DNA from: a virus
Length of the DNA: 34,884 nt
IMG/VR virus record: IMGVR_UViG_3300045988_174060
Location: 1-34,884 of that record
Reading direction: 5' to 3' (one strand)
The notes under the pieces were generated by a model that was not told the origin of the DNA, did no database searches, and was given only the letters and a program-made list of their open reading frames with translations. Positions within the stretch are counted from its first letter, which is position 1; the number at the start of each line of letters is the position of its first letter. Position numbers and translations under genes: made by a program. Positions 245 through 26,270 of the stretch are shown here, in pieces.

Positions 245-1537
245 ATGGCATACAAAATAAAATGGTATCTGGATTTGAGACGCACAAGCGATGAGGGCAA
301 AGGGCGGCTATACATGGTGATATACAACAATGGCACGGCGGCACAGATTGCCACCGGGCTGATGCTGCATAAGAATGAATTTGAAGCCGGCAAGGTGGTG
401 GGCGTGCCTATGGCCGGAAAACTGACGCAAATGCTCGGTACTAAAAGGGCTAAGCTGCAGCTTGACATTGAAGAACTTGCCTGCAACGGGTACGAGGTGG
501 ACAAGATGAAGGCGGCCGAGATTAAAAAGGCTGTGATGGCTAAACGCGGGAATGATGGCGAGGAAGGGAACGGCGAAGGTAAAGGGACCGGGAATGAGAC
601 GGCGTTTGGCACGTTTGCCGAGAAGTTTATAGCCCGAAGGGGCAAGGAGAAAACAAGGCAGGTGTATGAAATGACGCTGCGCAAGATGGGGGGATACTGT
701 GATGTGGGGCGCCTGAGGTTTGCCGACATCAGTGTGGGGTGGCTGCGCGACTTTGAGCAGTGGCTGGGGGAGACTTGCAGCGTGAACACGCGGGGCATTC
801 ACTTGCGCAATATTCGCGCGGTGATGAATGCGGCTATTGATGAGGGGGTGGTGCCGGCTGACTTGTACCCTTTCAGACGGTTTAAGATTAAGAAGGAGGA
901 GACGATGAAGCGGTCGCTTTCGGTGGGTGACTTGAGGCGGCTGAGGGATTACCCGTGTGAGGGGTGGCAGAGGAAGTATGTTGATGTGTTTATGCTGTCG
1001 TTTTATTTGGCGGGTATTAACTTGGTGGACTTGATGGGACTGCCGCCGTTGGGGGCGGACGGTGTCATAAGGTACAGGAGGAGCAAGACGGGTGTGCTGT
1101 GCCAGCTGTCGGTGCCGCCTGAGGCCCGGGCCATTATTGAGCGTTACAGGGGGGAGCGGCATTTGCTGTGGTTTGGGGAGCGGCTGAAGCCTGGCGCGGA
1201 GGGGTGGCATGACTGGCTGCACAGGTTTAATGAGGGGCTGCAGAAGGTGGGGCCGTCGGGTTATATGTATGTGCGCCGCAAGGGGCGGTGTGGCGGCAAG
1301 CAGCGGGTGAAGGTGTATAATGCCTTGTTTCCGGAGCTGACGTCGTACTGGGCGCGGCACACTTGGGCTACGCTGGCGGCTGAGATTGATGTGCCTGACG
1401 CGGTGATTGATGCTGCGCTGGGGCACAGGTCGCCGTGCAGAATGGCGGATATATACATAAGGCGTGATGCGCGCAAGGTGGACGAGGCGGTGAAGCGGGT
1501 GATTGAGTATGTGAATGGCAAGACTGATGGGAGTTAA
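245..1537 (+). CDS. int: Tyrosine recombinase / phage integrase
   Basis: 430 aa. Motifs RYRRSKTG (Arg-I/Lys region), YWARHTWAT (H-x-x-R box), ALGHRS and the catalytic Tyr in ADIYIRR. Adjacent to the tRNA att site. Confidence 0.9.
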   Translation: MAYKIKWYLDLRRTSDEGKGRLYMVIYNNGTAAQIATGLMLHKNEFEAGKVVGVPMAGKLTQMLGTKRAKLQLDIEELACNGYEVDKMKAAEIKKAVMAKRGNDGEEGNGEGKGTGNETAFGTFAEKFIARRGKEKTRQVYEMTLRKMGGYCDVGRLRFADISVGWLRDFEQWLGETCSVNTRGIHLRNIRAVMNAAIDEGVVPADLYPFRRFKIKKEETMKRSLSVGDLRRLRDYPCEGWQRKYVDVFMLSFYLAGINLVDLMGLPPLGADGVIRYRRSKTGVLCQLSVPPEARAIIERYRGERHLLWFGERLKPGAEGWHDWLHRFNEGLQKVGPSGYMYVRRKGRCGGKQRVKVYNALFPELTSYWARHTWATLAAEIDVPDAVIDAALGHRSPCRMADIYIRRDARKVDEAVKRVIEYVNGKTDGS

Positions 1538-4518: not shown

Positions 4519-4626
4519 GCAGGCGATAGGCCGCTAAACGGATAGGCGGCATGTGTAAATGTTAGATGCACTGCCAGTGTGTTGTAAAGATAGGAACATT
4601 AGCGGGTTCGACTCCCGCCGCCTGCA
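4519..4626 (+). ncRNA. tRNA-like structured RNA candidate 2
   Basis: Its first 32 nt (GCAGGCGATAGGCCGCTAAACGGATAGGCGGC) are identical to those of candidate 1. The T-arm GCGGG-TTCGACT-CCCGC is perfect. Acceptor 3' strand CGCCTGC with A at 4626. An inner stem pairs AATGTT with AACATT. 108 nt. Confidence 0.4.
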
Positions 4627-4640
4627 CGAAGCTTGGTTTT

Positions 4641-4797
4641 AAGTTGAAAAGTTTAGGAGTTGAAAAGCCAAGAAGTCGCTTTAAGAGTTGAAAAGTTAAG
4701 AGGTTTCCTCTGCTTGCCCAACTCATAAAACCGACCGCTTAACTTTTCAACTTTTCAACTTGAAAAACTCCAAACTCCTACTCTAACTCCAAAAGAC
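4641..4797 (+). repeat. Composite intergenic palindromic element, copy a (TTGCCC subfamily)
   Basis: Left arms are of the GTTGAAAAGTT/TAGGAGTT type. Core TCCTCTGCTTGCCCAAC at 4706-4722. The right arm CTTAACTTTTCAACTTTTCAAC runs up to the ATG at 4801. Confidence 0.85.
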
Positions 4798-4800
4798 CCT

Positions 4801-7710
4801 ATGATAAGAATAGAAAACCTATATCGCGCCACCAACGAGGGGCTCGATATCATACTGCACTACTACCCGCAGGCACGCGAGGTGGTGGGCTCCAAAAACA
4901 AGTTCAGGGTGCGCCCCGCCGACAAAACGCCCTCGGCCTGCCTCTACCTGTGCCACACACAGGGGGGCGAGGGTGTGTGGAAGGTGACCGACTTCGGCGA
5001 TGAGGGCCACGCGCAAAGCCCGCTCGACATCTGCATGAGGGAGGAGGGCATCGAACGCCCCTACGAGGCAGTGCTCAAGCTGGCCGCCATGTTCGACGTG
5101 CGTGACGAGCTGAACCGCTCCATCAACAAGCCCGACATCAAGCACCGCCCCGCCACGGCCGACGAGAAGGACGGCACACGCATCTTTGCCCTGCTTGAGC
5201 GCATACCCGAGAGCCACCTCAAAGTGCTTGGCCCGAGGGTGACGCACGCCGACACCGATGCGCTGCACTGGTACGAGGCCGAGTATGTGGGCTATGTCAA
5301 GAACCGCGAGGTGACGCTCAAGTACTCCACCGAGCACTACCCCATCTTCATGCGCGAGTGTGTGGTGGAGGAGGGCGGCGGCGAAAAGGCCGAAGTAAAG
5401 TTTTACAAAATATATGAGCCATTGAACCCCGACAAGGGTTTTCGCTTCAGCTATCACCCCGCAGGGGGCAAGCCCAAGGCCTACATCAACGGCCTTCACG
5501 AGCTGAAAGCCCTGTGGCGCAAGCTGAACGCCGACGAGGAAGCGGCCTTTTACCGCGACCCCGCCAACGAGGGCAAGCCCTACCGGGAGCAAAAGCTGAA
5601 GGAGGCCTTCATTTGTTCGGGCGAGCGCGACTCGCTGTGCTGCCACTCCATGGGCTACAGCCCGCTGTGGTTCAACTCCGAAACGTACCGCCTGAGCGAG
5701 GCAGAGTACAAGGAGGTGATGAAGTATGTGGAGGTGCTCTACAACATTCCCGACCTCGACAGCACAGGCGTGCGCAAGGGGCGCGAGCTTGCGCTGCGCT
5801 TCATAGACATACACACCATGTGGCTGCCGCAGAGCCTCACGGGCTACCGCGACAACCGCGGCCGCCCGCGCAAGGACCTGCGCGACTGGCAGGAGCTGCG
5901 CGACAGGCGGAGCGACTTTGCGGGCCTGATGGCACTGGCCATGCCTGCCAAGTTCTGGACGGAGCGCACCAACCGCAAAACGGGGGCCGTGACGTACGAC
6001 ATCGACACGGAGTGCCTGTACAACTTCCTCCGGCTGAACGGCTTTTACACCCTGCACGACGACAACATAAAGGAGGCGCGCTACATACACGTGCAAGGCA
6101 ACATTGTGCGCGAGGTGAAGGCCAAGGACCTGCGCCGCTTCATAAGCGAGTGGGCCGAGGAGCGCTGCCTGCCGCGCCCCGTGCGCAACCTCATACACAA
6201 CTCGCCAAGGCTGAGCGACTCAGCCCTCGACAACATGCGCGAGGTGACGCTCGACTTTACCAACTACACGCCCACCACGCAGCTCTTTTTCTTCCCGGGC
6301 AAAACGATTGAGGCCACCCCCACGGGCCTTGTGGAGCACTCAGGCGGGGAAGGTCTTGACCGCTATGTGTGGCAGGAGAATGTGCTGGACCACCGCGTCA
6401 CGCTCATGCCCCCCATGTTTGAGGTGGAGCGCAGCGTCACGCCCACGGGCGAGGCGCGCTTCGGGGTGAAGGTGAAGGACGCCGAGAGCAGCCCCCTGTT
6501 TGGCTACGTAATCAACACGAGCCGCGTGCACTGGCGCAAGGAGCTGGAGTACAACTTTGCCGAGCGCGATGCCTCGGAGGCCGAAGCCTACCACCGCGCC
6601 CACAAGTTCTGCATCGACGGCGAGGGCCTCACGCCCGACGAGCGGCACGAGCAGGAGCAGAACCTTGTCAGCAAACTCTTCACCATAGGCTACATGCTGC
6701 ACCACTACAAAAGCCCCTCGCGGGCGTGGGCGCCAATGGCCATGGACAACAAGATTGGCGAGGACGGCGAGTGCAACGGCCGCAGCGGCAAGTCGTTCCT
6801 GTTCAAGGCCCTCAGCCTCTTTATGAAAACGGTGAAGCTGAGCGGCCGCAACGCCAAGTTGATGGACAACCCGCACGTGTTCGACCAAGTGACGCAGCAC
6901 ACCGACTTTGTGCTGGTTGACGACTGCGACCGCCACCTTGACACGGGGGCATTTTACGACCTCATAACCTCGGACATGACCGTCAACCCCAAGAACAACC
7001 AGAGCTACACCATACCCTTTGAGCAAAGCCCGAAGTTTGGCTTTACCACCAACTATGTGCCGCGCGACTTCAGCCCCAGCACCGAGGCGCGCCTGCTTTA
7101 CCTTGTGTTCAGCGACTACTACCACCAGCGCACCGAGGGCAACGACTACCTTGAGAGCCGCAGCATACGCGACGACTTCGGGCGCGACCTCATAAGCTCC
7201 TCGTACAAGGAGGAGGATTGGAACGCGGACATAAACTTCTTTATGCAGTGCTGCCAGTTCTACCTGTCGATGTGCCAGGAGAGCGTCAAGCCCATGCCGC
7301 CCATGGGCAACATATTAAAGCGCAAGTTCAAGGCCGACATGGGCACCAACTTTGAGGAATGGGCCAACGTGTACTTTGCCGAGGAGGGCGACAACCTCGA
7401 CACCTTCATCGTTCGCCGCGAGGCCTACGACGCCTTTATAGACGATGCCAAGGTGAACAAGAATTTTTACACCATGAACAAGTTCACCAAGGCCTTGCGC
7501 TCCTTTGCCGCCCTCTGCCCCTACGTGTACGACTACAACCCCGCCGACTTGCTCAACTCGCAGGGCCGCATCTCGCGCCGCATCGACGGCAAGAGCGAGG
7601 ACATGATATATCTGCGCTCCACCAAGAGCCAGGCCAACCGCGAAAGCCTCGACACGGGGGCGCACCTCGACCCCGGGGCGGGATTTGTGCCGGACGAGAG
7701 CGAAGGCTAA
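4801..7710 (+). CDS. DNA primase / SF3 (P4-alpha or D5-like) helicase
   Basis: 969 aa. Central Toprim-like segment FICSGERDSLCCHSMGYSPLWFNSE. Walker A NGRSGKSF and Walker B FVLVDDCD. Confidence 0.8.
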   Translation: MIRIENLYRATNEGLDIILHYYPQAREVVGSKNKFRVRPADKTPSACLYLCHTQGGEGVWKVTDFGDEGHAQSPLDICMREEGIERPYEAVLKLAAMFDVRDELNRSINKPDIKHRPATADEKDGTRIFALLERIPESHLKVLGPRVTHADTDALHWYEAEYVGYVKNREVTLKYSTEHYPIFMRECVVEEGGGEKAEVKFYKIYEPLNPDKGFRFSYHPAGGKPKAYINGLHELKALWRKLNADEEAAFYRDPANEGKPYREQKLKEAFICSGERDSLCCHSMGYSPLWFNSETYRLSEAEYKEVMKYVEVLYNIPDLDSTGVRKGRELALRFIDIHTMWLPQSLTGYRDNRGRPRKDLRDWQELRDRRSDFAGLMALAMPAKFWTERTNRKTGAVTYDIDTECLYNFLRLNGFYTLHDDNIKEARYIHVQGNIVREVKAKDLRRFISEWAEERCLPRPVRNLIHNSPRLSDSALDNMREVTLDFTNYTPTTQLFFFPGKTIEATPTGLVEHSGGEGLDRYVWQENVLDHRVTLMPPMFEVERSVTPTGEARFGVKVKDAESSPLFGYVINTSRVHWRKELEYNFAERDASEAEAYHRAHKFCIDGEGLTPDERHEQEQNLVSKLFTIGYMLHHYKSPSRAWAPMAMDNKIGEDGECNGRSGKSFLFKALSLFMKTVKLSGRNAKLMDNPHVFDQVTQHTDFVLVDDCDRHLDTGAFYDLITSDMTVNPKNNQSYTIPFEQSPKFGFTTNYVPRDFSPSTEARLLYLVFSDYYHQRTEGNDYLESRSIRDDFGRDLISSSYKEEDWNADINFFMQCCQFYLSMCQESVKPMPPMGNILKRKFKADMGTNFEEWANVYFAEEGDNLDTFIVRREAYDAFIDDAKVNKNFYTMNKFTKALRSFAALCPYVYDYNPADLLNSQGRISRRIDGKSEDMIYLRSTKSQANRESLDTGAHLDPGAGFVPDESEG

Positions 7711-7713
7711 AAG

Positions 7714-7892
7714 ATTCAAGTTGAAGAGTTTAGGAGTTGAAAAGTTAAGAAGATACCTCTGCTTGTCCAACTCATAAAAGCGACCGCTTAACTTTTCAAC
7801 TCTTAAACTCTTCAACTTAAAACTCCGACCTCTTAACTCTTCAACTCTTAAACTTTTCAACTTTCCCCCTCAACTTTTCAACTCATAAACTT
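7714..7892 (+). repeat. Composite intergenic element, copy b (TTGTCC)
   Basis: Core ACCTCTGCTTGTCCAAC at 7755-7771. There are two successive G-free right-arm blocks before the ATG at 7893. Confidence 0.85.
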
Positions 7893-8315
7893 ATGAACTT
7901 AAAAAAAGAACACCTCGTACCCCCGGGCAGCGTGCCCGACGCCACACGCATACTTACGAATGTGGCCTACCTCATGGGCGATGTGACCAACACCCTCATG
8001 ATGGACGCACAAAGCCGCGTGGAGCGGCTCGGCTTCGACCTCAAGCACGACTGCAAGCAGCGCTGGCGCATGGCCGTGCACCAAACCGAACTGGCCAAAA
8101 GAGCCTGGGCCAGCTTTGCCCGCGAAATGTACACCCTCGAAGATGCCGCACAGGCCTGCGACGACAGCGACTACTTTGCCGACCTAATCCTCCTCATTGC
8201 CGACCGCGTGGGCGACAACCACCGCCGGCAACAAATGGTGCGCAACATGATTAAACGCCTCAAAAGCGAAGCACACATCTACGACGAACTCACACAGGGG
8301 CGGGCAGGCTTCTGA
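7893..8315 (+). CDS. Hypothetical protein (early region)
   Basis: 140-aa ORF. It starts directly after a right arm and has backbone-like composition. Confidence 0.6.
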   Translation: MNLKKEHLVPPGSVPDATRILTNVAYLMGDVTNTLMMDAQSRVERLGFDLKHDCKQRWRMAVHQTELAKRAWASFAREMYTLEDAAQACDDSDYFADLILLIADRVGDNHRRQQMVRNMIKRLKSEAHIYDELTQGRAGF

Positions 8316-8986: not shown

Positions 8987-9234
8987 ACACACCCAAACTA
9001 CACTCCAGCATCAGCCAGCACGACGCACTGCGCCTGCTCGAAGACGGGGAACCGCACCGCCTGCGCGTGTGGAAACTCTCAACCGGCGACATACTCACCT
9101 ACGAGGGCGCACGCTGCATAGGCGGGCACAAGCGACGCGGCACACACCGCATCAGGCTCCCGCAGTCGGCACTCATTCGCGAGTTCCGCGACTGCACACT
9201 ATTTGAGATTGACCACATGACCATATACTGGTAA
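8983..9234 (+). CDS. Hypothetical protein
   Basis: 83 aa. Its start overlaps the upstream stop as ATGA, suggesting translational coupling. Confidence 0.55.
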   Translation: MNTPKLHSSISQHDALRLLEDGEPHRLRVWKLSTGDILTYEGARCIGGHKRRGTHRIRLPQSALIREFRDCTLFEIDHMTIYW

Positions 9235-9237
9235 GGC

Positions 9238-9349
9238 GAAAAGTTGAGGAGTTGAGGAGTTGAAAAGTTGAGAAGTTTCCTCTGCTTGCACAACTCTTAA
9301 AAGCGACCCCTTAACTTTTCAACTCTTAAACTCCTAAACTCTTCAACTC
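9238..9349 (+). repeat. Composite intergenic element, copy d (TTGCAC)
   Basis: Core TCCTCTGCTTGCACAAC at 9278-9294. The arms flank it and the right arm abuts the ATG at 9350. Confidence 0.85.
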
Positions 9350-9700
9350 ATGCTCCTCCTCCCCACCATACCCGATGAATGGCTCACCCCCCAAGGCTTC
9401 AGCCGCCTCTACCGCGAGGGCGGCGAAACATTCCGCACATTCGCCCGCCAAGTGTACGACTACCTCGAAACCATGCACCCCGGCCGCAGCGTCACCTTCC
9501 GTCGCTACCAAGGCTCGCCAAAACTCGAGTGGTGCGTGCGCACGGCAGCCATCTTCCTGCTCACCGCCGACCACTGGCGCCAATACGACCTCATGGACGA
9601 CCGCATAACCATACGCCGACACCGCACACCACCCACCAACACCCACTACCGACCCACAGCCACCATCAGCCAAGCCACACGCCGCATGTACGGCAAATAA
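9350..9700 (+). CDS. Hypothetical protein
   Basis: 116-aa ORF starting immediately after the right arm. Confidence 0.55.
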   Translation: MLLLPTIPDEWLTPQGFSRLYREGGETFRTFARQVYDYLETMHPGRSVTFRRYQGSPKLEWCVRTAAIFLLTADHWRQYDLMDDRITIRRHRTPPTNTHYRPTATISQATRRMYGK

Positions 9701-9706
9701 ATTTGC

Positions 9707-9762
9707 AGATACTACAAATATGTTATACAAATATTTGGCCATATAACATATTTGTAGTATCT
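9707..9762. promoter_or_regulatory. Perfect 21-bp inverted repeat overlapping the hicA promoter; candidate operator
   Basis: AGATACTACAAATATGTTATA (9707-9727) pairs with TATAACATATTTGTAGTATCT (9742-9762) across a 14-nt spacer. Confidence 0.7.
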
Positions 9763-9765
9763 TTG
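9734..9765 (+). promoter_or_regulatory. Canonical Bacteroidota promoter
   Basis: TTTG at 9734-9737, then 20 nt, then TATCTTTG at 9758-9765. Confidence 0.65.
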
Positions 9766-9809
9766 TATTGTGAAAAGAGAACTAAAGTATAACCCCTAAA
9801 ACCAACTTG

Positions 9810-9992
9810 ATGAAATGGAATGAACTAAAGAAACAAGCACTGCAACATGGATTTGAACTCAGCCGCCACGGCAAGGAGCACGACATCTATGTAAACCACG
9901 CGAAAGGCATAACCATACAAATTGAAAGACATGGGAACGCCGAAGTAAAAAAAGGCCTGTACTTCAAACTAAAAAAGCAAATAGGCTTTTAA
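9810..9992 (+). CDS. hicA: HicA-family mRNA-interferase toxin
   Basis: 60 aa. MKWNELKKQALQHGFELSRHGKEHDIYVN...IERHGNAEVKKGLYFKLKKQIGF fits the HicA/YcfA pattern. AT-rich. Confidence 0.75.
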   Translation: MKWNELKKQALQHGFELSRHGKEHDIYVNHAKGITIQIERHGNAEVKKGLYFKLKKQIGF

Positions 9993-10066
9993 CCTACACC
10001 AGAGCAAGGGAGGGCAACCCCCCACCCTCCCTTGCCTGCCACATTATAAAGGAAAGGTACAAAAAA

Positions 10067-10480
10067 ATGGAAAAAGCACACTTTACAGTAACAATCGAAA
10101 AGGACACCGACGGCACCTTCTTAGCCTACAACACCGACAACAGCCCATACACACTCATAGGGCGAGGCCACACGGTAAAAGAGGCAAAAGCCGACTTCGC
10201 CAACTCCATGGCCGAAGCAAGAGCCGACGAAGAACAGCGCGCCGGCAAAGCTGCCCCCATACTCAAGGCCGACCCCGTGTTCAAGTTTGACGTGTCCACC
10301 CTCTTCGACTACTACAACATGCTCAACGTGAGCGCCTTCGCACGATACTTAGGCATTAACGAAACACTCATGCGCCAATACAAAAGGGGAGGCACTTACA
10401 TATCAGACACACAACTGCAAAAAATTGAAGAAGGGCTGCACAAATTAGGCGCCGACCTCATCAGTACAAAGTTACTTTAG
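10067..10480 (+). CDS. hicB: HicB-family antitoxin with a C-terminal HTH
   Basis: 137 aa. The N-terminal fold motif FTVTIEKDTDGTFLAYNTD...GHTVKEAKADF is HicB/UPF0150-like. C-terminal HTH ARYLGINETLMRQYKRG. Lies directly downstream of hicA. Confidence 0.75.
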   Translation: MEKAHFTVTIEKDTDGTFLAYNTDNSPYTLIGRGHTVKEAKADFANSMAEARADEEQRAGKAAPILKADPVFKFDVSTLFDYYNMLNVSAFARYLGINETLMRQYKRGGTYISDTQLQKIEEGLHKLGADLISTKLL

Positions 10481-10505
10481 TTTCCCCCACATTCCATTTC
10501 ACACC

Positions 10506-10538
10506 GCCCGGCACGTCACCCCACGTGCCGGGCTTTTT
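10506..10538 (+). terminator. Intrinsic terminator of the hicAB moron
   Basis: GCCCGGCACGT-CACCCC-ACGTGCCGGGC followed by TTTTT. Confidence 0.75.
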
Positions 10539-10623
10539 CGTGCCCACACGCCGCCTTAAATCCGTAAAATTGACCAATCCCGAACCACTGAGAGGGAAGA
10601 AAGGTTTTACCACACCCCCTAAA

Positions 10624-10918
10624 ATCGTACTTTTTTTTTGTAATTTTGTATCACACTTTGTATCAAACAAAGAAAAGTATTGAATATCAATAAAATAAGT
10701 AAGAAAAAAAGGTGATACAAAACCCGATACAATTCTGATACAATTTTTTCCCGAAATGTATCACCCCCCGTTTTGTATCAGCCCCCGCCCCCCTGATACA
10801 ATTTTATTTTGCCCGATACAAAAATGTATCAGCCAAAGAAGAAAAATGTATCACTTGAAAATCAGATAGTTACGCTACAAAATTACGCTGATACAAAATT
10901 ACAGAAAAAAAGTACGAA
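10624..10918. repeat. AT-rich array of 12 TGTATCA/TGATACA heptamers bounded by 29-bp inverted repeats
   Basis: TGTATCA starts at 10647, 10659, 10757, 10774, 10825 and 10847. (T/C)GATACA starts at 10713, 10725, 10736, 10794, 10814 and 10889. The flanking inverted repeat 10624-10653 versus 10889-10917 has one internal mismatch. Confidence 0.85.
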
Positions 10919-11012
10919 ATTCGACCTCAGCCAGATTACAGGAAAAACACACCGCACGCACTACGCCACGAACCAAGCCCGAAAAACGACAAAAAGAACA
11001 AGGGTAAAAGTT

Positions 11013-11110
11013 GAAAAGTTTAGGAGTTGAAAAGTTTAGAGGTTACCTCTGCGAGTTCAACCTCTAAAACATTCCTCTTAACTCTTAAACTTTTCAACTC
11101 CTCAACTTTA
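11013..11110 (+). repeat. Composite intergenic element, copy e (GAGTTC)
   Basis: Core ACCTCTGCGAGTTCAAC at 11045-11061. ACATTCCTCTTAAC box at 11069-11082. Confidence 0.85.
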
Positions 11111-11130
11111 ATTTTCCCCCCTCCCCACAC

Positions 11131-11643
11131 ATGAAAGGCCTAACCGTATACCTCCGTCTTGAGCCATACCTGCGCCAATGGCTTACCCACCACTTTGGCA
11201 GCCCCGTGCGCTTCCCGCCACGCTCCTACGAGAATATGCTCCTCCACCGCCTGCTCTCACGCCCCGCAGCTGGAGCCACCACCGCCACGGGGCCAACCTG
11301 CCCGCCCGACAGCGTGGCAATAGTCATAACCGACCACGCCCAGCGGCGGCCCGAATACTGGTGCCACCTCTCACGCAGGGCACAGGCCGAAATGGCACGC
11401 GCCGTGGCCAACCTCTTTTGCCTCGCCCTGTGGAGCGAGTGCGTGTGCCTCATACACAGCGGCACACTCAACCGCGGCATCGACTCATGGTGTCAGGCCA
11501 ACGGCATTGCACTCATCTACCGCGAGGGCGTAAGGCAGAAGTTTTACCGCATGCGGCGCCTTTATGCGCAGAATGGCGTAATTCTTGGCAAAAAATATAC
11601 CCACGCAAGTGGTAATAATCACACACACACCACCCACCCATGA
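11131..11643 (+). CDS. Hypothetical protein in the small-terminase position
   Basis: 170 aa. Its stop overlaps the terL start as ATGA. No motif was recognised, so the TerS role rests on position only. Confidence 0.6.
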   Translation: MKGLTVYLRLEPYLRQWLTHHFGSPVRFPPRSYENMLLHRLLSRPAAGATTATGPTCPPDSVAIVITDHAQRRPEYWCHLSRRAQAEMARAVANLFCLALWSECVCLIHSGTLNRGIDSWCQANGIALIYREGVRQKFYRMRRLYAQNGVILGKKYTHASGNNHTHTTHP

Positions 11644-13262
11644 GCACCCCCACACCCCAACAAATATACATGAACCGCATGCAGCGCGAAGTGTGCGCCA
11701 TCGACGCCCACACCAACGTGATAGTGGCCGGCCGAGGCACAGGCAAAAGCATGCTGCACGCCTGGATCAACCTGCGCAACATGCAGGCCATGCCACGCAG
11801 CACCACCGCCTTTGTGTGCCCCACAGCCATCAGGGCAAAGACCAACACGCTGCCCTCAATGTTCGAGCACTGGGAGAAATGGGGCTACCGCCGCGGCCTG
11901 CACTGGGACATAGGCCACCGTCCGCCACGCTCGCTCGACTGGCCCGCGCCACTCGTCACACCCGACAACTGGGAGAACATCATCACCTTCTATAACGGTG
12001 CCATTGGCCAGATAGTGAGCCAGGACCGCGTGGGCACCTCCAACTCAAAGAGCTTTGACTACATAGACATTGACGAAGCCAAGTTTGTAGACTACGAGCG
12101 GCTGAAGGACGAAACCTTCCCCGCCAACCGCGGGCAGCAGCGCGAGTTTGGCGACCTGCCCTTCCACCACGGCATGCTCATCACCTCCGACATGCCCGTG
12201 TCGCGGCGCGGCTCATGGTTCATGCGCTATGCCGACCAGTGCGACACCGAACTCATAAGCACCATTGAGGCCCTGGTGGCCGACGAGCAACAAACCATGC
12301 AGCGCATGGCCCAGGGCGACACCACCCCCTACCTGCCCGAGCGCATCAAGCAAACGCGCCGCCTGCTCGCCTCGCTCCGCCGCCGCGCCACACTCTACCG
12401 CACCTACTCCAGCCTTACCAACATCGAAGTGCTGGGCGAGGCATGGGTGCGACAGATGCGGCGCGACCTCACCCCCATGGTGTTCCGCACCTCCATACTG
12501 TGCCGCCCCATCGAGGTGCTAAAGGACGGCTTCTACTCCTCAATGCGCCCCTCACACCGCTACACCTCCACCGACTACCATGTGGTCGACGCCCTGGGCT
12601 ACGACTTCAAGGCACTCACCCACATGGCCGGCACATGCAAGGCCGATGCCGACATCAACCGCGGCCACCCCCTGTGCATAGCCTTCGACTTTAACAACAA
12701 CATCAACTGGCTCGTGGCAGGCCAGCCCGACGAGGACCGCCGCCGCCTCAATGTGCTAAAGTCATTCTACGTAAAGTACGAGCGCAAGCTGCCCGCCCTC
12801 ATAGCCGACTTCTGCCAGTACTACGACCCGCTGCCCATGCACGAGGTCGTGTTCTACTACGACTCCACCGCCCTCGGCTCCAACTACGCCGTCAACGATC
12901 AGGACTTCCGGTGGGTCATCACACACGAGCTGCAGCTGCACGGCTGGCGCGTGCGCCCCGTCTACATAGGCGCCCCCATGCGCCACCTCGAAAAGTACCA
13001 GCTCATCAACCGCGGCTTCGACGGCAAGGCCCGCCTCATGCCATTCTTCAACGAGCCCAACAACCCCGACCTGCTCATCTCAGTACAAACTGCCGGCGTG
13101 TACAACGAAAAGAAGGACAAGCGACGCGAAAAGCTGGCCGAGACCGACGAGGACCGACTCGAAAACCGCACCGACGGCTCCGACGCCTTCGACACCTTAT
13201 ATATAGGCTGCGAACGTTTCCCCCAGCAGCCCGTGCAGCTCGTCGTCACTGGCGGCGGCTGA
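11640..13262 (+). CDS. terL: Terminase large subunit
   Basis: 540 aa. Walker A VAGRGTGKSM and Walker B FDYIDIDEAKF, with a C-terminal nuclease-sized domain. Confidence 0.8.
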   Translation: MSTPTPQQIYMNRMQREVCAIDAHTNVIVAGRGTGKSMLHAWINLRNMQAMPRSTTAFVCPTAIRAKTNTLPSMFEHWEKWGYRRGLHWDIGHRPPRSLDWPAPLVTPDNWENIITFYNGAIGQIVSQDRVGTSNSKSFDYIDIDEAKFVDYERLKDETFPANRGQQREFGDLPFHHGMLITSDMPVSRRGSWFMRYADQCDTELISTIEALVADEQQTMQRMAQGDTTPYLPERIKQTRRLLASLRRRATLYRTYSSLTNIEVLGEAWVRQMRRDLTPMVFRTSILCRPIEVLKDGFYSSMRPSHRYTSTDYHVVDALGYDFKALTHMAGTCKADADINRGHPLCIAFDFNNNINWLVAGQPDEDRRRLNVLKSFYVKYERKLPALIADFCQYYDPLPMHEVVFYYDSTALGSNYAVNDQDFRWVITHELQLHGWRVRPVYIGAPMRHLEKYQLINRGFDGKARLMPFFNEPNNPDLLISVQTAGVYNEKKDKRREKLAETDEDRLENRTDGSDAFDTLYIGCERFPQQPVQLVVTGGG

Positions 13263-13308
13263 TGCACGCCGTGCCCAAGAAATAATACAAAAAAACTTAT
13301 TGATTTTC

Positions 13309-13339
13309 TTTGATAATAAGTATATTATTATTATCTTTG
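13309..13339 (+). promoter_or_regulatory. Canonical Bacteroidota promoter
   Basis: TTTG at 13309-13312, then 19 nt, then TATCTTTG at 13332-13339, in a very AT-rich spacer. Confidence 0.6.
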
Positions 13340-13376
13340 CAGTGTAATAAAAACAAAGAAAGGAGGTGTACAATGA

Positions 13377-13514
13377 ATGACTAAGAAAGAAAAAGTAACA
13401 GCAGCCAAAGCGATAGTAATGCTTGCAGAGTTGGCCAACACAACAAAGCACGACTACATCAAAGCCGAAGCATTAAGACTTATCGAGGAACTTGCTGAAG
13501 CAATCGAAAGCTAA
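13377..13514 (+). CDS. 45-aa mini-protein (below the ORF-track cutoff)
   Basis: Encodes MTKKEKVTAAKAIVMLAELANTTKHDYIKAEALRLIEELAEAIES. AGGAGG lies 11 nt upstream. The ORF sits between a promoter and a hairpin. Confidence 0.45.
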   Translation: MTKKEKVTAAKAIVMLAELANTTKHDYIKAEALRLIEELAEAIES

Positions 13515-13520
13515 AACAAA

Positions 13521-13546
13521 GGGCCCGCACAAGGGCGGGCCCATTT
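13521..13546 (+). terminator. GC hairpin (terminator or attenuator)
   Basis: GGGCCCGC-ACAAGG-GCGGGCCC followed by ATTTT. Confidence 0.55.
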
Positions 13547-13947: not shown

Positions 13948-14232
13948 CGTCCTTTCGCCGCCACGCCGCCACACTTTACCGGCATATACCGCCCGCGCGC
14001 CCCCCTCCAGCCGGGCGCGGGGCGTAGGGCATTGGGGGGTCGAAAAGCTGACAAAGCGCACCATTTCAGAGGCCGCCAGGCCCTGATGCCCACTAAAATG
14101 GGACAAACTGCCGCCCCGTGTGCCGCAAGCGCGCAAGGAGCGGCCCAAAGGCGGGCGGGTGTCTTTTACAAGCCTATATATATAGCTGTACATTTGCCCA
14201 CAACTTTTAACCATTTAACACACACGCTACTT

Positions 14233-15414: not shown

Positions 15415-16380
15415 ATGGCAAAAACTATCACCACCCTCGAGGCACTGCAGAAGAGTGCCACCCGCTACGAGAAGGAACTCCTCATCATGCCGGCCACATC
15501 GGCCGGTGCCACGCTCCAGCACATGACGGGCATGCCCGGCTTGCTTGGCGACGTGGTGCTCGGCCAGCTTGACGGCGATGCCGAACTCGGCCCGTACAAG
15601 AGCACACGCTCGGCCGACGGCAACTTTACCATCGCCCCGCGCGAGCTCGAGCTATTCCTTGGCAACTGTGCCTACGGCTTCGACCCCAACGACGTGTGGG
15701 GCACCATCTACGGCTCGCTTGTGGCACAGGGCGAGTCGCTCAAGACGGTGGACGTGAACAAGTACATCCTCATGTTTGTGGCCGGCAAACTTGGCCGCAA
15801 GCTCAACATGGCCATCTGGGGCGCAAAGCGCAACGCCGATGGCGACAGCACAAAGGACTTGTTCAACGGTTTCGACACCATCACCGCCACCGAGGCCACT
15901 GCGGGCAACATTGCCGCAGGCAAGGGCAACTACATGGAGCTGACGGCCGCCATCGACAAGACTAACGCCATCGACACATTCAACGCCATCTACGCCGCCG
16001 CCGATGACGAGCTGCAGGGCCAGAAGGCTAAAATATATGTGTCGAAGGACATTTACAACGCCTACAACCAGAACTACCAGTTGTTGCACGGCTCGCTGCC
16101 TTACAACACGGAGTTCAAGAAAACCTTCCTCGAGGGTTCGGACAACCTGTGGGAGTTCTGCCCGCTGGCATCAAAGAAGGGCTCGCAGTACATACACATT
16201 GCCCCGCAGAGCAACATGGTGTACGGCTACGGCGCTGGCGACAACCCCGGCGAGCGTCTGGCCATCGAGAAGTACTCATCATGGAAGCTCACCCTCGAGG
16301 CTGCAATGGCCTTCGGCGTGCAGTTCCGCAGCCTGAGCCCCGAAATGCTCATGGTGGCCAAACTCAAGGGCGGAGAATGA
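15415..16380 (+). CDS. Major capsid protein (probable)
   Basis: 321 aa, immediately downstream of the protease-scaffold gene. The call rests on size and position. No motif was verified. Confidence 0.65.
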   Translation: MAKTITTLEALQKSATRYEKELLIMPATSAGATLQHMTGMPGLLGDVVLGQLDGDAELGPYKSTRSADGNFTIAPRELELFLGNCAYGFDPNDVWGTIYGSLVAQGESLKTVDVNKYILMFVAGKLGRKLNMAIWGAKRNADGDSTKDLFNGFDTITATEATAGNIAAGKGNYMELTAAIDKTNAIDTFNAIYAAADDELQGQKAKIYVSKDIYNAYNQNYQLLHGSLPYNTEFKKTFLEGSDNLWEFCPLASKKGSQYIHIAPQSNMVYGYGAGDNPGERLAIEKYSSWKLTLEAAMAFGVQFRSLSPEMLMVAKLKGGE

Positions 16381-16548
16381 GTTGAAAAGTTGAAAAGTTG
16401 AAAAGTTAAGAGGTCACCTCTGCGAGTTCGACCTCTAAAACTGACCTCTTAACTCTTAAACTCTTAAACTTTTCAACTTAAATCCCTCCGAGCCTGACAT
16501 TCCTCTTAACTTCTCAACTCTTAAACTCTTAAACTTAAAAAACTCCCC
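16381..16548 (+). repeat. Composite intergenic element, copy g (GAGTTC) with a second module
   Basis: The left arm is GTTGAAAAGTT three times. Core ACCTCTGCGAGTTCGAC at 16416-16432. Module-2 box CAACTTAAATCCCTCC...GACATTCCTCTTAAC at 16474-16510. Confidence 0.9.
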
Positions 16549-17172
16549 ATGGCAGTACAAACCCCCACAACCACCCCCTGCGCCAACGGCGCACCCTTCA
16601 GCAGTCTGCGCTTCTGCGCCGGCCAGCGCGTTATACCCGGCATTCGCACCGCGGTATACTACACAGCAAAGGAAAACATCACGGCATGGCCCACCCTGCC
16701 CCAGCCCACCGACAAGGACGTGACACTGGCCAAACTCGCCACCTACGACGGCAACTTCACACTAAAGGCCGACAAGAAGTGGCAGCGCATTGACCTCGTA
16801 ACAAATAAAGGCAACGTTGAATGGGAAACTCAGGGCGAGCGCCCCTCGTGCACATTCCTCAACAAACTTACAGCCAGCCACCCCGGCACGGCCGAGGAGG
16901 CGGCAGGTTTTTGCTCGGTGGCGCAGAACGCCGACCTCGTGTTCCTGGTGCAGCAGCGCGACGGCAAGTTCCGCGTGCTGGGCAACGAAATGTTCGAGAC
17001 GGTGGTGAAACCCAAAGGCTCGCTCGGCGAGGGCACAAGCACCAACGCGAGCACCGACATCGAAATCGAAGCCACCGACGTGGTGCCGGCTCCCTTCTAC
17101 CCCGGCGAAATCGACACCGCCGACGACGGCAAGATTAGCGGCGCCACGGGCAAGCCGGTGGTGGCAGCGTAG
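16549..17172 (+). CDS. Structural-module hypothetical protein
   Basis: 207-aa ORF between two repeat elements. Confidence 0.6.
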   Translation: MAVQTPTTTPCANGAPFSSLRFCAGQRVIPGIRTAVYYTAKENITAWPTLPQPTDKDVTLAKLATYDGNFTLKADKKWQRIDLVTNKGNVEWETQGERPSCTFLNKLTASHPGTAEEAAGFCSVAQNADLVFLVQQRDGKFRVLGNEMFETVVKPKGSLGEGTSTNASTDIEIEATDVVPAPFYPGEIDTADDGKISGATGKPVVAA

Positions 17173-17295
17173 CTCTGAGTTCTGAGTTTTAAGGTTATGA
17201 GGTTATAAAGTCACCTCTGCGAGTTCGATAGCACAAAGTAACTTTATAACCTTATAACCTCAAAACTCAAAACTAAACTTATAAACTTAAACACT
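17173..17295 (+). repeat. Composite intergenic element, copy h (dialect B)
   Basis: Left arm GAGTTCTGAGTTTTAAGGTTATGAGGTTATAAAGT. Core ACCTCTGCGAGTTCGAT at 17213-17229. Right arm AACTTTATAACCTTATAACCTCAAAACTC. Confidence 0.85.
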
Positions 17296-17829
17296 ATGCT
17301 CGACCCCGAATTTACCCAACAACTGCAGGCGTACCTTGCCAAGCCGTCAGATGAACGCGACGTGAGGCAAGGGGCCCTGCTCTTGTTACGCATCAACTCC
17401 AACCGCTACCTCTACGCCTGTGCCTGTGCGGCCCCCGCGCGCTACGCCGACACCATAGCCTACGAACTGAACAAGCACCTGCGCATACGCCTCGACGGAC
17501 TGACGCGGCAGGACGTGGCCACCATGGAGCAAGAGGCGCTGCCGCTCATTGAGCAGAGCATCAGCCAAGGCGCGCCCGTCATCAGCACCGACGCCGACCA
17601 CCCCAAGGGCCAGTACCGCGGCCGCCGCCCCGACCACGACAAGCTGCCCGACCACATCAAGAAGCTGTACGACGACAACGGCGAGCTTTACTTCAAGATG
17701 AAGCAGGCCTTTGAAACGCTCAAGACCATGGCCGACAAGGAGCCGTGCGACCGCTACGAACTGCTCAAACTGCTCAAAAAGGCTGATGAGAGGTACAGGC
17801 TGAATTGGGAGGCATACGATAAGTTCTGA
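17296..17829 (+). CDS. Structural-module hypothetical protein
   Basis: 177-aa ORF. Confidence 0.6.
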   Translation: MLDPEFTQQLQAYLAKPSDERDVRQGALLLLRINSNRYLYACACAAPARYADTIAYELNKHLRIRLDGLTRQDVATMEQEALPLIEQSISQGAPVISTDADHPKGQYRGRRPDHDKLPDHIKKLYDDNGELYFKMKQAFETLKTMADKEPCDRYELLKLLKKADERYRLNWEAYDKF

Positions 17830-18139: not shown

Positions 18140-18709
18140 ATGACCGACACCCTCGCCGACCGCGCGCAACGCTACCTCATGGCCTCTGCCGAAGAGATGC
18201 AGAAGGCAGGCCTGCCCTCATACATGCAGGCCCGCTTGTTCCGCCTCAGGGAGATGTATGCCTACTGGCTGCAAAACCCCCGCATGGTGGACAAGGACAT
18301 TGTGGGCGTGCTGCGCCAGAAGTACGGCCTTGGCCTGTCGCAAGCCTATGAGGACGTGCGCTGCATCAAGATATGCCTGGGCAACCTCGGGCGCATCACC
18401 AAGGACTACGACCGCTGGCTATTCCGCGAACGGTGCGAGGAGGGCTGGCAGATGGCACGCGAGGCGGGCGACGCCAAAGCCTTTGCCGCTGTCACGGCCA
18501 CCTACCTCAAGGGCACGCAGCTCGACAAGGAGGACTCAGCCGCCCCCGACTATTCGAGCATCACCCCGCAGCAGTTCGTCATATCGGCCGACCCCGCCGT
18601 GGCTGGCTTCAAGGTGGTGCCCGGCATCATCGAGAAGGCAAAGCGGCTCGAGGCGCGCTACGTGCAGGAGTTTGAGGAGGTTGACAACCACACCCCACCC
18701 ACACCATGA
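18140..18709 (+). CDS. Structural-module hypothetical protein
   Basis: 189-aa ORF. Confidence 0.6.
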   Translation: MTDTLADRAQRYLMASAEEMQKAGLPSYMQARLFRLREMYAYWLQNPRMVDKDIVGVLRQKYGLGLSQAYEDVRCIKICLGNLGRITKDYDRWLFRERCEEGWQMAREAGDAKAFAAVTATYLKGTQLDKEDSAAPDYSSITPQQFVISADPAVAGFKVVPGIIEKAKRLEARYVQEFEEVDNHTPPTP

Positions 18710-19116
18710 CACGCTACATCACCCACATAAGCCTTGCCCCCGCCGCCAGCATGGGCCAGCTCACCCTCGGCCCCGACGGGCACACGGCCGCCCTCAACAC
18801 CAAGGGCGCACAGTGGCACACCGTGCCCACCACGGGCCTTGCGGCCATGGAGGTGAACGACGAGGTGGCCGACGGCCGCCACACATGCTCGGCCAAGCTC
18901 ACCGCCACGCTGTGCGGCCGCTACACCCCCATGGCCGGCCCTGTGGCCGTGCTGCTCACCTGTGCCGACGGCACACGCCTGCTCCTGGGTACGGGCGAAA
19001 GGCCCATGCCCGCCGTCACGCTGCCCGACACGCTGCCCGACAAGGCGGCCGAACGCTCGGCGCAAACGATAACAGTCAGCTACGCAGCAAGGCCGCTGGC
19101 CTTGATGGGTAGCTGA
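18706..19116 (+). CDS. Structural-module hypothetical protein
   Basis: 136 aa. ATGA overlap with the upstream gene. Confidence 0.55.
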   Translation: MTRYITHISLAPAASMGQLTLGPDGHTAALNTKGAQWHTVPTTGLAAMEVNDEVADGRHTCSAKLTATLCGRYTPMAGPVAVLLTCADGTRLLLGTGERPMPAVTLPDTLPDKAAERSAQTITVSYAARPLALMGS

Positions 19117-19118
19117 CA

Positions 19119-19261
19119 AGTTGAAAAGTTTATAAGTTTATGAGGTTACCTCTGCTTGTCAAACTCATAAAAGCGCCCTCTTAACTTCTCAACTCCTCAA
19201 CTTTTCAACTCAGAAAACCGACCTCATAAACTCCTCAACTTCTAAACTTCTCAACTTTATA
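19119..19261 (+). repeat. Composite intergenic element, copy j (TTGTCA)
   Basis: Core ACCTCTGCTTGTCAAAC at 19148-19164. Confidence 0.85.
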
Positions 19262-20632
19262 ATGACGAACTTCGACCAACTACGCGACACTGCCGCCACC
19301 ATACGCGACGAAAAGGCACGCTACGCCAACACCGCCAACCGTGTGGGCACACTGCTCTACAACATGTGCCTGGCCATGGCCGACACCGACGCCGCCGCAT
19401 CGGCCGACCACCCCATAACGCAGGGCCTCGGCCAGTGGCTCACCACCCACGACAACCTGACCACCCTCGACGCCCTGAACGCCGCGCTCGACGCCATGAA
19501 CGTGGACTCCCCCCAGGGCCTGCACCGCTTCAAGTGCCTCGACATACCGGTGCTCACCTACTTCGGCGTGCTCGTGAAGGACACCAAGCGCTATGTGCAG
19601 ATAGCGGTGGGGGCTTTCACCCTCAACACGCATGGCACCGCGCTGGCCTCGATCAACGACACAGCATCAACGCGCAACGTGATAGTGCGCTACTTTAACG
19701 GCACCAAGTGGCAGGCATGGCAGCCCCTGCAGCCGCAAAAGCAAACGTCGTACTCGGGCTACAACGGCAACTATGTATACTCCGAAGGCACGACCGACAA
19801 CACGCGCACCATACTGAGCAGCAAAATGTGGACTTATACACACGGCGACCGCAACTTGTTTTTACGCTTCAAGCACTGGGGCGCAGAGAACAACACTGAG
19901 ACAAGCCAATACAGTCAAGTGCTGCTATGCTATTTGGTGAACAGGAACCAAGACGGGCTGATGGATAAGTATGTGTTTGCCCGCATTCTGAATAACAATC
20001 TTGCAGAAGGGCTGAGCACTACGGACAGCGTAATTGTTAACTACACAAACTTTGCCGAGAGTGGCAACAAGCAACTTGTACTCACCAAGGCCACAAGCGC
20101 CAAGGCGGGCGTCATGACGGCCGCACAGGCCACGCAGCTGAGTGCGCTGGACGAAGGCATAAAGCAAGTGAGCCTGAACGGCGGCAAAAAGTGGGAGTTC
20201 CGCACCCTCGGGGGCGAAAAGGTGTTGGAAACGCTCTCCGACGTAATGGGCGAGGAGGTAAGCCACTCCGACTTCGAGAACGCCGAACTCGCCACCTACA
20301 TGGAGGGCAACCCCATCGAGGTGTACCAAACGCAGGGTGCCTACGGTGTGCCTGCGCAAAAGTACATGATATGGTTCGGCCACCGCATCAAGGGCGCCAG
20401 CGGCACACTGCAGCGCTACGACTTCAAGACCATTGCCGGCATGGAGCCGCTCGCGTTGTACTACAGAGTGCCACAGGGCACCGCGATGCACTTCTGGACT
20501 CTGACCAATGGCCATGCCATTGCCTACAAAGGCTCGGGGGGCCTCACGGCGCAACTGAGTACCGCGCCCTACATCATGAGCACCAACGACAAGGCGGTGC
20601 TCGAAAAGTTGAGGGGGCAGTTGAAAAGTTGA
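19262..20632 (+). CDS. Structural-module hypothetical protein
   Basis: 456-aa ORF. The last codons (KLRGQLKS-stop) are encoded by left-arm repeat units. Confidence 0.65.
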   Translation: MTNFDQLRDTAATIRDEKARYANTANRVGTLLYNMCLAMADTDAAASADHPITQGLGQWLTTHDNLTTLDALNAALDAMNVDSPQGLHRFKCLDIPVLTYFGVLVKDTKRYVQIAVGAFTLNTHGTALASINDTASTRNVIVRYFNGTKWQAWQPLQPQKQTSYSGYNGNYVYSEGTTDNTRTILSSKMWTYTHGDRNLFLRFKHWGAENNTETSQYSQVLLCYLVNRNQDGLMDKYVFARILNNNLAEGLSTTDSVIVNYTNFAESGNKQLVLTKATSAKAGVMTAAQATQLSALDEGIKQVSLNGGKKWEFRTLGGEKVLETLSDVMGEEVSHSDFENAELATYMEGNPIEVYQTQGAYGVPAQKYMIWFGHRIKGASGTLQRYDFKTIAGMEPLALYYRVPQGTAMHFWTLTNGHAIAYKGSGGLTAQLSTAPYIMSTNDKAVLEKLRGQLKS

Positions 20633-20725
20633 AAAGTTAAGAGGTAACCTCTGCTTGCCCCAACTCTTAAAACCGACATCTTAACTCTTAAACTCTTAAA
20701 CTCATAAACTTAAAAATCCTCCTCT
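20604..20725 (+). repeat. Composite intergenic element, copy k (TTGCCC); left arm inside the upstream CDS
   Basis: Left arm AAAAGTTGAGGGGGCAGTTGAAAAGTTGAAAAGTTAAGAGGT. Core ACCTCTGCTTGCCCCAAC at 20647-20664. Confidence 0.85.
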
Positions 20726-20977
20726 ATGACCAAAGAAGACCGTACAAAATACCAAGTTTACTCGGCGCTGGCCATGCTCCTTGCGGGTGTGGCACTGAGT
20801 GTGGCGGGGTTCCTGGTGCCCCCGGTGGGCGAGATCAGCGACTCGGTGCTGTGGTTCTTTGCCCAGTGCCTCATTTATGCCGGCTCAATATTCGGCGTGA
20901 GCATCTACGTGCAAAGCAAGTTCACCGAGCTGAAAGAAGAAATAAACAACCGCAAAAACATTGACAAGAGTAGTTGA
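20726..20977 (+). CDS. Holin candidate (two TM segments)
   Basis: 83 aa. TM1 VYSALAMLLAGVALSVAGFLV and TM2 VLWFFAQCLIYAGSIFGVSIYV, with a charged C-terminal tail. Lies directly upstream of the amidase. Confidence 0.55.
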   Translation: MTKEDRTKYQVYSALAMLLAGVALSVAGFLVPPVGEISDSVLWFFAQCLIYAGSIFGVSIYVQSKFTELKEEINNRKNIDKSS

Positions 20978-21117
20978 AAAGTTTATGAGTTGAAAAGTTA
21001 AGAGGTTACCTCTGCTTGCCCAACTCTTAAAAGCGTCCTCTTCACTTGTCAACTTATAAACTCTTAAAAGCGACCTCTTAACTCATAAACTTATAAACTT
21101 ATAAACTTTTCCATTCC
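20970..21117 (+). repeat. Composite intergenic element, copy l (TTGCCC)
   Basis: The holin stop TGA lies inside GTTGAAAAG. Core ACCTCTGCTTGCCCAAC at 21008-21024. Confidence 0.85.
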
Positions 21118-26268: not shown

Positions 26269-26270
26269 TA

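Follow-up and report, generated by a model that had tools for sequence, protein, structure and literature searches.

We analysed a stretch of viral DNA of 34,884 nucleotides (IMG/VR record IMGVR_UViG_3300045988_174060, positions 1 to 34,884; hereafter the window) and studied an array of short repeats that lies in it between a hicAB moron and the large terminase gene (terL). Sequence comparison indicates that this array is the local form of an ancient conserved element of about 270 bp, located at the boundary between the early and late genes of a large family of Bacteroidota phages. The best explanation from this comparison is a nucleoprotein assembly site placed after the terminator of the early/replication operon and before the first late gene, which encodes an unannotated protein of 170 amino acids (aa). 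The initial annotation preferred a packaging site and listed an origin of replication among the alternatives. Now the origin appears to be the best-supported reading, and we tentatively propose, at somewhat less than an even chance, that the array is the replication origin of the phage, of the iteron type found in the pathogenicity islands of Staphylococcus aureus (SaPIs) and satellite phage P4, and that it is served by a 969-aa primase-helicase. Literature searches for such an element in Bacteroidota phages found no description of it.

The repeat array and its conservation

The unit of the array is the hexamer TGTATC, which occurs in 12 copies within 10647-10895, six on each strand (Table 1). 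Twelve copies of the heptamer TGTATCA/TGATACA, six each way, had been claimed at first. This count stands for the hexamer, whereas only ten of the 12 extend to TGTATCA and the other two read TGTATCG. The exact heptamer was found 11 times in the window, ten times inside 10647-10895; its expectation is 2.24 for the whole window, and none of 100 dinucleotide-preserving shuffles reached 11. Several other features were found as first described. The array region is AT-rich (G+C content 0.33 compared with about 0.56 for the window), the inverted pair at 10815-10830 reads GATACAAAAATGTATC, and the whole array is bracketed by a 29-nt inverted repeat (10625-10653 and 10889-10917) that is 97% complementary, with one mismatch and 235 nt between the arms. 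The peptide DTKLQKKST is shared by two open reading frames (ORFs) on opposite strands, 10461-10670 (-) and 10809-11030 (+). This is a by-product of the inverted repeat, and neither ORF is a credible gene.

The spacer between the left motif pair and the triple direct run is a candidate unwinding and/or bending segment. The 50-mer at 10661-10710 is 84% A+T and ranks second for AT among all 50-mers of the window, and its top strand is 79% purine. In addition, the TTGAAAATCAG-ATAGTTACG element near the right end may be a site for a protein of the integration host factor (IHF)/HU type; positions 10860-10872 agree at 12 of 13 positions with WATCAANNNNTTR, which is the IHF consensus of Escherichia coli.

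Relatives were collected with a hidden Markov model of the 170-aa protein, and a homologue was present in about 95 fetched loci. Every distinct locus carries 6-13 copies of a short motif, in both orientations, within 700 bp upstream of the 170-aa gene. The motif varies by lineage around the common core nnnACA(A). It is GATACA in the clade of the window; L291, with a 170-aa protein of only 46% identity, has GATACA too, and the L213 clade has GTTACA with some GATACA. In L295 and L297 it is ACTACA or GACTACA, in L312 it is TGCTACA, and other lineages have ATCACA, GTCACA, GTAACA, ATTACA, GTTGCA, or ATATACA. Furthermore, the cultured marine Polaribacter phage Leef_1 has a GATTACA/TGTAATC array, which lies in a 520-bp gap before its gene Leef1_39.

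The order of the parts is shared among the lineages. A terminator comes first, followed by one or two sites that point right. After a spacer of 63-67 bp (from the first right-pointing to the first left-pointing site) there are 3-4 sites that point left. Then come more sites both ways, TGA-N5-TCA followed by AGTTA (IHF-like), and the last site, which lies in the terminal inverted repeat. The spacer is A/T- or purine-rich and keeps the words GTWTTGAAAA and AATAAATAAAGG, and the 3-4 direct copies, 10-13 bp apart, have the same position in nearly all lineages. The two ends are conserved as well. The left-end design TTTGTnnn-TTTGTAAY, after GTAC/GTCC and an A/T run, was found in 13 divergent lineages including Leef_1 (TGTAATTTTGTAATC in Leef_1 and TGTAATTTTGTATCA in the window). 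The right-end block, composed of the motif and a ACTTTTCGGACGAAATTACATCAG-like sequence, is kept in other lineages, for instance as AAAATCAAATAGTTAAG ... GATTACAGAATTACAGAA in Leef_1 compared with AAAATCAGATAGTTACG ... GATACAAAATTACAGAA in the window. Meanwhile, the TTGAAAATCAG-ATAGTTACG element is also present in L291, L213, L250, L274, L312, and Leef_1 despite their different repeat motifs.

The distances between neighbouring sites peak at a period of 10.5-10.75 bp (R = 0.35, 138 distances from 20 lineages), although this statistic is indicative only, because the 20 pooled lineages are not independent. Such a period supports cooperative protein binding on one face of the helix. The initial annotation had proposed a cooperative binding site for a DNA-binding protein, and this proposal gains support from the helical spacing, the deep conservation of the architecture, and the switching of the motif between lineages. 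At the nucleotide level, a DNA search (near and distant) of 9700-13300 against GenBank phages gave no match. Patterns of the arm 17-mer and of triple GATACAA retrieved mostly chance matches from viral contigs (AT-rich viruses and tandem repeats of giant viruses), and a mixed-orientation array was present among these matches only in the phage's own clade.

The candidate origin and the primase-helicase

In the SaPI origin, 6-12 penta- or hexanucleotide iterons lie immediately downstream of a rep gene or a pri-rep fusion (PMC9371898). The centre is AT-rich with at least two iterons in opposite directions on each side, and the iterons are read by the winged-helix domain at the variable C-terminus of a self-loading helicase (PMC9371898). 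In the window, the array has 12 hexamers, with two right-pointing and three left-pointing copies around the 84% A+T 50-mer. Three further observations are consistent with an origin. First, there is one array per genome and only four TGTATC hexamers occur in the other 34.6 kb of the window, which points to a unique cis-acting site rather than to the regulon of a transcription factor. Second, the motif changes while the architecture stays constant, as in the specificity groups of initiators and origins. Third, the other unique cis-acting sites are assigned elsewhere: the cos candidate lies after terL, attP is excluded, and the immunity repeats are different.

The array resembles the SaPI origins in its short iterons (5-6 bp) in both orientations, its AT-rich centre, and its element-specific iteron sequence, and like them it lies downstream of a primase-helicase gene, on the border of the packaging/late operon. 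However, the array is not always beside the replicase, and the replicase has no detectable similarity to solved Rep proteins. The SaPI iterons are read by the replicase, whereas binding by the replicase would have to be supposed here. In addition, the phage element has extra TGA-N5-TCA / IHF-like sites and a conserved terminal inverted repeat, and it is invariably coupled to the 170-aa gene, which has no SaPI counterpart.

Satellite phage P4 offers a second comparison. The type I iterons of its ori and crr, TGTTCACC, are bound by the C-terminal domain of the alpha primase-helicase. Several short motif copies in both directions are common to P4 and to the array, and the multifunctional primase-helicase that recognises them in P4 may have its equivalent here. 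However, P4 requires two separated loci (ori and crr), while the phage has a single locus. Iteron plasmid replicons have direct iterons and an inverted-repeat operator beside the rep gene, together with an IHF site and an AT-rich DUE. The array resembles them in the order of parts, namely an AT-rich segment, direct repeats, inverted repeats, a promoter, and an adjacent small gene. It differs from them in having units of 6-7 bp at a spacing of about 10.5 bp, compared with iterons of about 20 bp at a 22-bp spacing, and the 170-aa protein lacks a winged-helix Rep fold and heads the structural operon.

The candidate for acting on the array is the 969-aa protein. It is 36% identical over its full length to Leef1_27, annotated as 'DNA primase/TOPRIM', and on the basis of this identity and its P-loop we call it a primase-helicase. 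It was found in more than 100 viral contigs, and in about 80 related contigs the array begins 300-600 bp past its stop codon. A search with its profile against the PDB gave no match. The C-terminal part of about 150 residues is variable, and the divergence between close relatives concentrates in residues 820-969. At equal identity of the replicase core, pairs of phages with different motifs have a lower identity in the replicase C-terminus (0.72 vs 0.87; 0.78 vs 0.99). In the same pairs, the identity of the 170-aa protein is not lower in the 0.85-0.95 and 0.65-0.75 bins (0.84 vs 0.82; 0.38 vs 0.38), and in the top bin, which holds 2 pairs, it is 0.87 vs 0.95. Furthermore, columns shared by the two GTC lineages and unlike their nearest relatives gave a signal too weak to be decisive: the 170-aa protein has 2 such columns among 212, and the replicase has 7 among 995, of which three lie at residues 915-920. 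The association of motif class with divergence seems to tilt toward the replicase C-terminus, with linkage and fuzzy site classes as confounding factors.

In the mechanism that we propose for an origin, the TGTATC hexamers would be recognised by the primase-helicase through its variable C-terminal domain, and several molecules of the protein would attach cooperatively along the same side of the helix. With the left pair pointing rightward and the triple run pointing leftward, the 47-bp A/T-rich spacer would lie between two groups directed toward each other. A host or phage protein of the IHF/HU type might bend the DNA at the TGA-N5-TCA / ATCA-N4-TTA elements, and then the spacer would melt and two helicase rings would be loaded. 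We infer both which protein binds the array and that replication initiation is the outcome.

Several results weigh against an origin served by this replicase. The only invariant neighbour of the array is the 170-aa gene and not the replicase; the primase-helicase is 2.9 kb from the array in the window, 2.6 kb in L295, and 5 kb in Leef_1, and the array abuts the 170-aa gene in all cases. L295 has a DnaG-type primase-helicase, in which the 456 C-terminal residues that were sampled have no detectable similarity to the 969-aa family, and the array there still has the same architecture and the ACA(A) core. Few independent events underlie the correlation with the replicase C-terminus, which could result from physical linkage, since the region coding for the C-terminus adjoins the array. 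Moreover, the sites are fuzzy (RTTACAA) within one subclade, so some of the 'motif classes' may not be real changes of specificity. The spacer is not AT-rich in all lineages (about 50% G+C in L259), and a spacer that is not AT-rich and has conserved words suggests that a protein binds there, rather than that the DNA simply melts. The cumulative GC/AT skew of the window and of Leef_1 has no inflection at the array, a result that is uninformative.

Late-gene control, packaging, and other readings

The main rival of the origin would be control of the late (structural) operon, in which a phage protein on the 12 sites switches a late promoter on or off. The protein could be the product of the adjacent 170-aa gene or an early protein, which would loop or wrap the DNA with the help of an IHF/HU-type bend. 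We consider this role rather unlikely. The array always lies between the early terminator and the first late gene. Promoters were scanned with TAnnTTTG instead of a sigma-70 scanner, because Bacteroidota promoters differ. In most lineages a canonical Bacteroidota promoter, with the -7 box TAnnTTTG and often TTTG 20 nt upstream (TTTG-N20-TAnnTTTG), was found 20-60 nt before the start codon of the 170-aa gene and 100-150 bp downstream of the array. A late promoter of this kind would need to be silenced in the lysogen. However, the window's own clade lacks the canonical box. Twelve sites over 250 bp that end more than 100 bp upstream of the promoter are also unusual for a bacterial activator or repressor, and the genome has no second target for a late-control protein.

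No moron or gene interrupts the block of terminator, array, promoter, and 170-aa gene, and morons are frequent on the other side of the array. In about 100 loci, just one insertion was seen to separate the array from the 170-aa gene, namely a hairpin element of about 105 bp, which is non-coding and occurs in the window's clade. Furthermore, the array and the 170-aa gene stay together where the replicase family differs, and the 170-aa protein has a conserved basic C-terminal helix, VRQKFYRMRR. These results favour late control. On the other side, the 170-aa protein has no recognisable DNA-binding fold, its conserved segments barely differ between lineages with different motifs, and it would be made from an operon under its own control. 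A shared early protein that might bind the array was also sought. The DUF5053 proteins alone were common to L295 and the window, and tblastn (E ≤ 1e-3) did not detect them in L213, L211/L291, L250, L279, or Leef_1.

The 170-aa family comprises 472 clusters at 50% identity in a library of 1.84 billion proteins. No match was found in Pfam, PHROGs, NCBIfam, or PDB sequences (single and profile searches), and tblastn against phages and plasmids gave no annotation. The AlphaFold model has a predicted local distance difference test (pLDDT) score of 88 and a predicted template modelling score (pTM) of 0.80. Foldseek against the PDB gave no fold match and no solved small terminase, and against BFVD the sole structural match was Leef1_39, an uncharacterised protein of Leef_1 (TM 0.60). 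It is conceivable, though unlikely, that the array and this protein of predicted novel fold form an undescribed cis/trans module across Bacteroidota siphoviruses, distinct from classical origins, terminase sites, and operators alike. In such a module, the 170-aa protein would assemble on about 12 helically phased sites with an IHF/HU-type bend, and the assembly would license the late operon or couple replication initiation to late transcription.

Packaging was the preferred reading of the initial annotation, with a recognition region of the pac/cos type. In this reading the array would be a pac or cosB-like site, and the product of 11131-11643 would bind it as the small terminase subunit. This now appears quite improbable. 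The 170-aa gene does lie directly before terL in the window, L291, L295, and L297, and in the window the stop and start codons overlap. In the L213-type phages, which are most of the relatives, and in L313 and Leef_1, however, a distance of 5-8 kb separates terL from the array and the 170-aa gene upstream of it. The order there is array, 170-aa gene, small gene, ClpP protease, capsid, and more head genes, then another small gene (o210 / Leef1_47), the stop of which overlaps the start of terL. The small terminase label, which had been given to the 170-aa gene by its position, refers to nothing more than this position, which does not hold across the family. The model of the 170-aa protein also matches no solved small terminase.

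The pac site of P1 and cosB of lambda are known to have arrays of short repeats together with an IHF site, and the array is like them in its short motifs clustered around a putative IHF site. However, they adjoin the cleavage site and the terminase genes, whereas the array is apart from terL in most relatives. The related contig L003 begins inside the array, as might be expected at a packaging start, but this start is a library or assembly artefact because a Nextera adapter remnant is present there. Positions 1-17 of L003 (IMGVR_UViG_3300045988_171945) are a Nextera mosaic-end remnant, ATGTGTATAAGAGACAG, fused to array position ~10727, and the deposited contig is thus contaminated.

Another element accompanies terL. 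A GC-rich non-coding block follows terL directly in every arrangement, with homologous elements in L291, L295, L297, L213, L281, and L284. Its pattern is GCATATWCCGC, 26-40 nt, and then AGGGCGTWGGG..., and in the window it includes the most GC-rich 40-mer. The GenBank record of Leef_1 ends 83 bp past terL with ...CATATTATC...GTAGGCCACGGCGTTGT, which aligns with this block and forms a GC-rich patch in a genome of 29.7% G+C, 8 kb from the Leef_1 array. The cos 3' ends of Leef_1 were predicted with PhageTerm by its authors (PMC8776804). Because this block keeps its place after terL and corresponds to the end of the Leef_1 record, we propose with moderate confidence that the cos site of the family lies after terL and not at the array.

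The o210 family deserves a separate description. It is a conserved all-helical protein of 190-210 aa, encoded at 18140-18709 in the window, 19023-19655 in L213, and 35385-35966 in Leef_1. Its gene overlaps the start of terL in the L213-type phages and Leef_1, and in the window, where it is found among the head genes, the place of terL with respect to it has changed. The protein is an alternative candidate for the small terminase. The AlphaFold model (pLDDT 82) had no PDB match, and there was no family match either.

Very improbable are a structured RNA (leader or non-coding RNA) and the arm-site region of an integrase attP. The 301-nt segment folds at -80 kcal/mol (z = -12.9), and a TAnnTTTG box stands at the left end on the + strand in several lineages. 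However, dyad-symmetric repeats give a strong fold automatically. The orientation counts are unbalanced in many lineages (e.g. 3 against 11), runs of 3-4 direct repeats have no partner, and a non-complementary arm position (AAAAC left, ACAAAC right) is conserved. In addition, a terminator lies upstream of the array, and no Rfam match was found. With regard to attP, that of lambda is about 240 bp long with arm sites in both orientations and IHF sites, and in Leef_1 the integrase gene is just upstream of the array. In the window, however, int is 9 kb away. On contigs of 56-135 kb, the array is also whole and has phage genes to its left and right; host flanks are suggested by the length of these contigs, which exceeds that of the phage. 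An array intact within prophages is not the site of the integration crossover.

A partition-like site, one of the alternatives listed at first, is unsupported because the phage has an integrase and no ParA/ParB match among roughly 35 proteins scanned (Pfam, PHROGs, NCBIfam). A passenger miniature inverted-repeat transposable element, which the 29-nt inverted repeat around a 235-bp non-coding segment had suggested, has practically no chance of being correct and is refuted within the collections searched: a pattern of 15 nt from both arms with 220-250 nt between them, applied to the genome and metagenome collections, had 0 copies in 185,579 species-representative genomes, all six metagenome copies lie about 280-300 bp upstream of the same gene (92-98% identical 170-aa protein) and terL, the matches in viral contigs are all from the same phage clade, the element and its terminal repeat keep their position, with diverged sequence, in lineages down to 32% TerL identity, and a flanking target-site duplication is not evident.

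Genome setting and significance

The window is a temperate siphovirus of the Bacteroidota type with a prophage gene order (Table 1). The stem of the terminator before the array is a perfect 11-nt inverted repeat followed by TTTTT, and a similar hairpin is present upstream of the array in L213, L295, L297, and Leef_1. The hicAB label of the adjacent pair is borne out for HicA. This pair is a swappable moron; L001/L012 lack it, and L302-L305 have a DUF4160/DUF2442 pair in its place. The boundary of the exchange is exactly at the terminator, and the homology of the relatives picks up at 10500.

Table 1. Positions of the array parts, genes, and other features in the window
Feature	Position	Strand	Remarks
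Integrase	245-1537		Phage_int_SAM_5 domain
CI-like helix-turn-helix gene	2354-2767
969-aa primase-helicase, candidate array-acting protein	4801-7710	+	Toprim-like N-terminal part; P-loop GRSGKS
HicA	9807-9992		Pfam
HicB-position ORF	10067-10480
Intrinsic terminator ending the early/moron unit	10506-10538	+	Stem 10506-10516 / 10523-10533, then T run
TGTATC copies	10647, 10659, 10757, 10774, 10825, 10847	+
TGTATC copies	10714, 10726, 10737, 10795, 10815, 10890	-
Left arm of terminal inverted repeat	10625-10653		GTAC, T-run, TGTAAT, TTT, TGTATCA
Left motif pair, right-pointing	10647-10665	+	TGTATCA at 10647 and 10659
A/T- and purine-rich spacer (47 bp)	10666-10712		Palindrome TTGAATATCAA at 10680-10690
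Triple direct run, left-pointing	10713-10742	-	GATACA at 10714, 10726, 10737; 11-12 bp apart
Six more copies, alternating orientation	10757-10853		C-rich spacers; +10757, +10774, -10795, -10815, +10825, +10847
Conserved TTGAAAATCAG-ATAGTTACG element	10855-10874		IHF-like
Right arm of terminal inverted repeat	10889-10917		Includes last motif copy
Dispersed hairpin element copy	11006-11109		Between array and 170-aa gene; window's clade only; not part of the array
170-aa protein, unannotated family	11131-11643	+	First gene after the array in all loci
terL	11640-13262		Start overlapped by the stop of the 170-aa gene in the window's clade
GC-rich non-coding element, candidate cos	13982-14041		GCATATACCGCC ... 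GGGGCGTAGGGCATTGGGGGGTC; after terL and two morons
Downstream genes			DUF5053 gene, ClpP-type protease, capsid, tail genes

The hairpin element between the array and the 170-aa gene belongs to a dispersed intergenic family, with no copy at the equivalent position in L291. There are at least 11 copies in the window (4630-4800, 7710-7900, 9225-9330, 10985-11130, 16375-16550, 17170-17300, 19112-19270, 20630-20760, 20965-21130, 23245-23430, and 26262-26440), with the invariant core GAGGTnACCTCTGC and arm units of 8-bp periodicity (AAGTTGAA / AAGTTTAG ... TTCAACTC / TTAAACTC). L291 carries its own version (AATGTGCAAATGTGAG...), and contig L207 breaks within a copy of the window type. One copy adjoins a tRNA-Gly(GCC) called by ARAGORN at 4535-4625, which is unusually long (91 nt) and may be false, intron-containing, or degenerate. 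In the close relatives L302 (18101-18511), L303 (18294-19286), and L304 (18049-19049), the o149-like and portal-position genes are separated by one or two genes of the HU type (Pfam HU-HIG / HU-DNA_bdg); in the window these are missing, and a hairpin copy takes their place.

Two other regions of the window were noted. Right after terL, at 13290-13545, lies an AT-rich moron that includes the most AT-rich 50-mer of the window and has a 45-aa ORF (13377-13514) with its own Bacteroidota-type promoter boxes and terminator. In addition, the divergent control region beside the CI-like gene (2101-2354) has its own repeats, GCGTAACGCGGTTACGTAAC and the palindrome GGCAAAAGGGGCGTAAA, which are unrelated to TGTATC and presumably are immunity operators.

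This phage family is common in human-gut metagenomes and extends to marine Flavobacteriia, and almost none of its genes are annotated. The results offer three anchors, namely a candidate origin at the array, a candidate cos at the GC-rich element after terL, and a late promoter. These anchors would serve annotation, the prediction of genome ends, and the engineering of Bacteroidota phages and phage-derived vectors. The cultured phage Leef_1 is a model in which the readings of the array, cos, and promoter can be tested. From its anatomy, the array is probably best filed as an iteron-type nucleoprotein site similar to those of SaPIs and P4. If the 170-aa protein binds the array, its fold would be a new one among DNA-binding proteins, and late genes would be controlled in a new way. 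If the array is the origin, the motifs of the lineages would define replication specificity groups, as in SaPIs.

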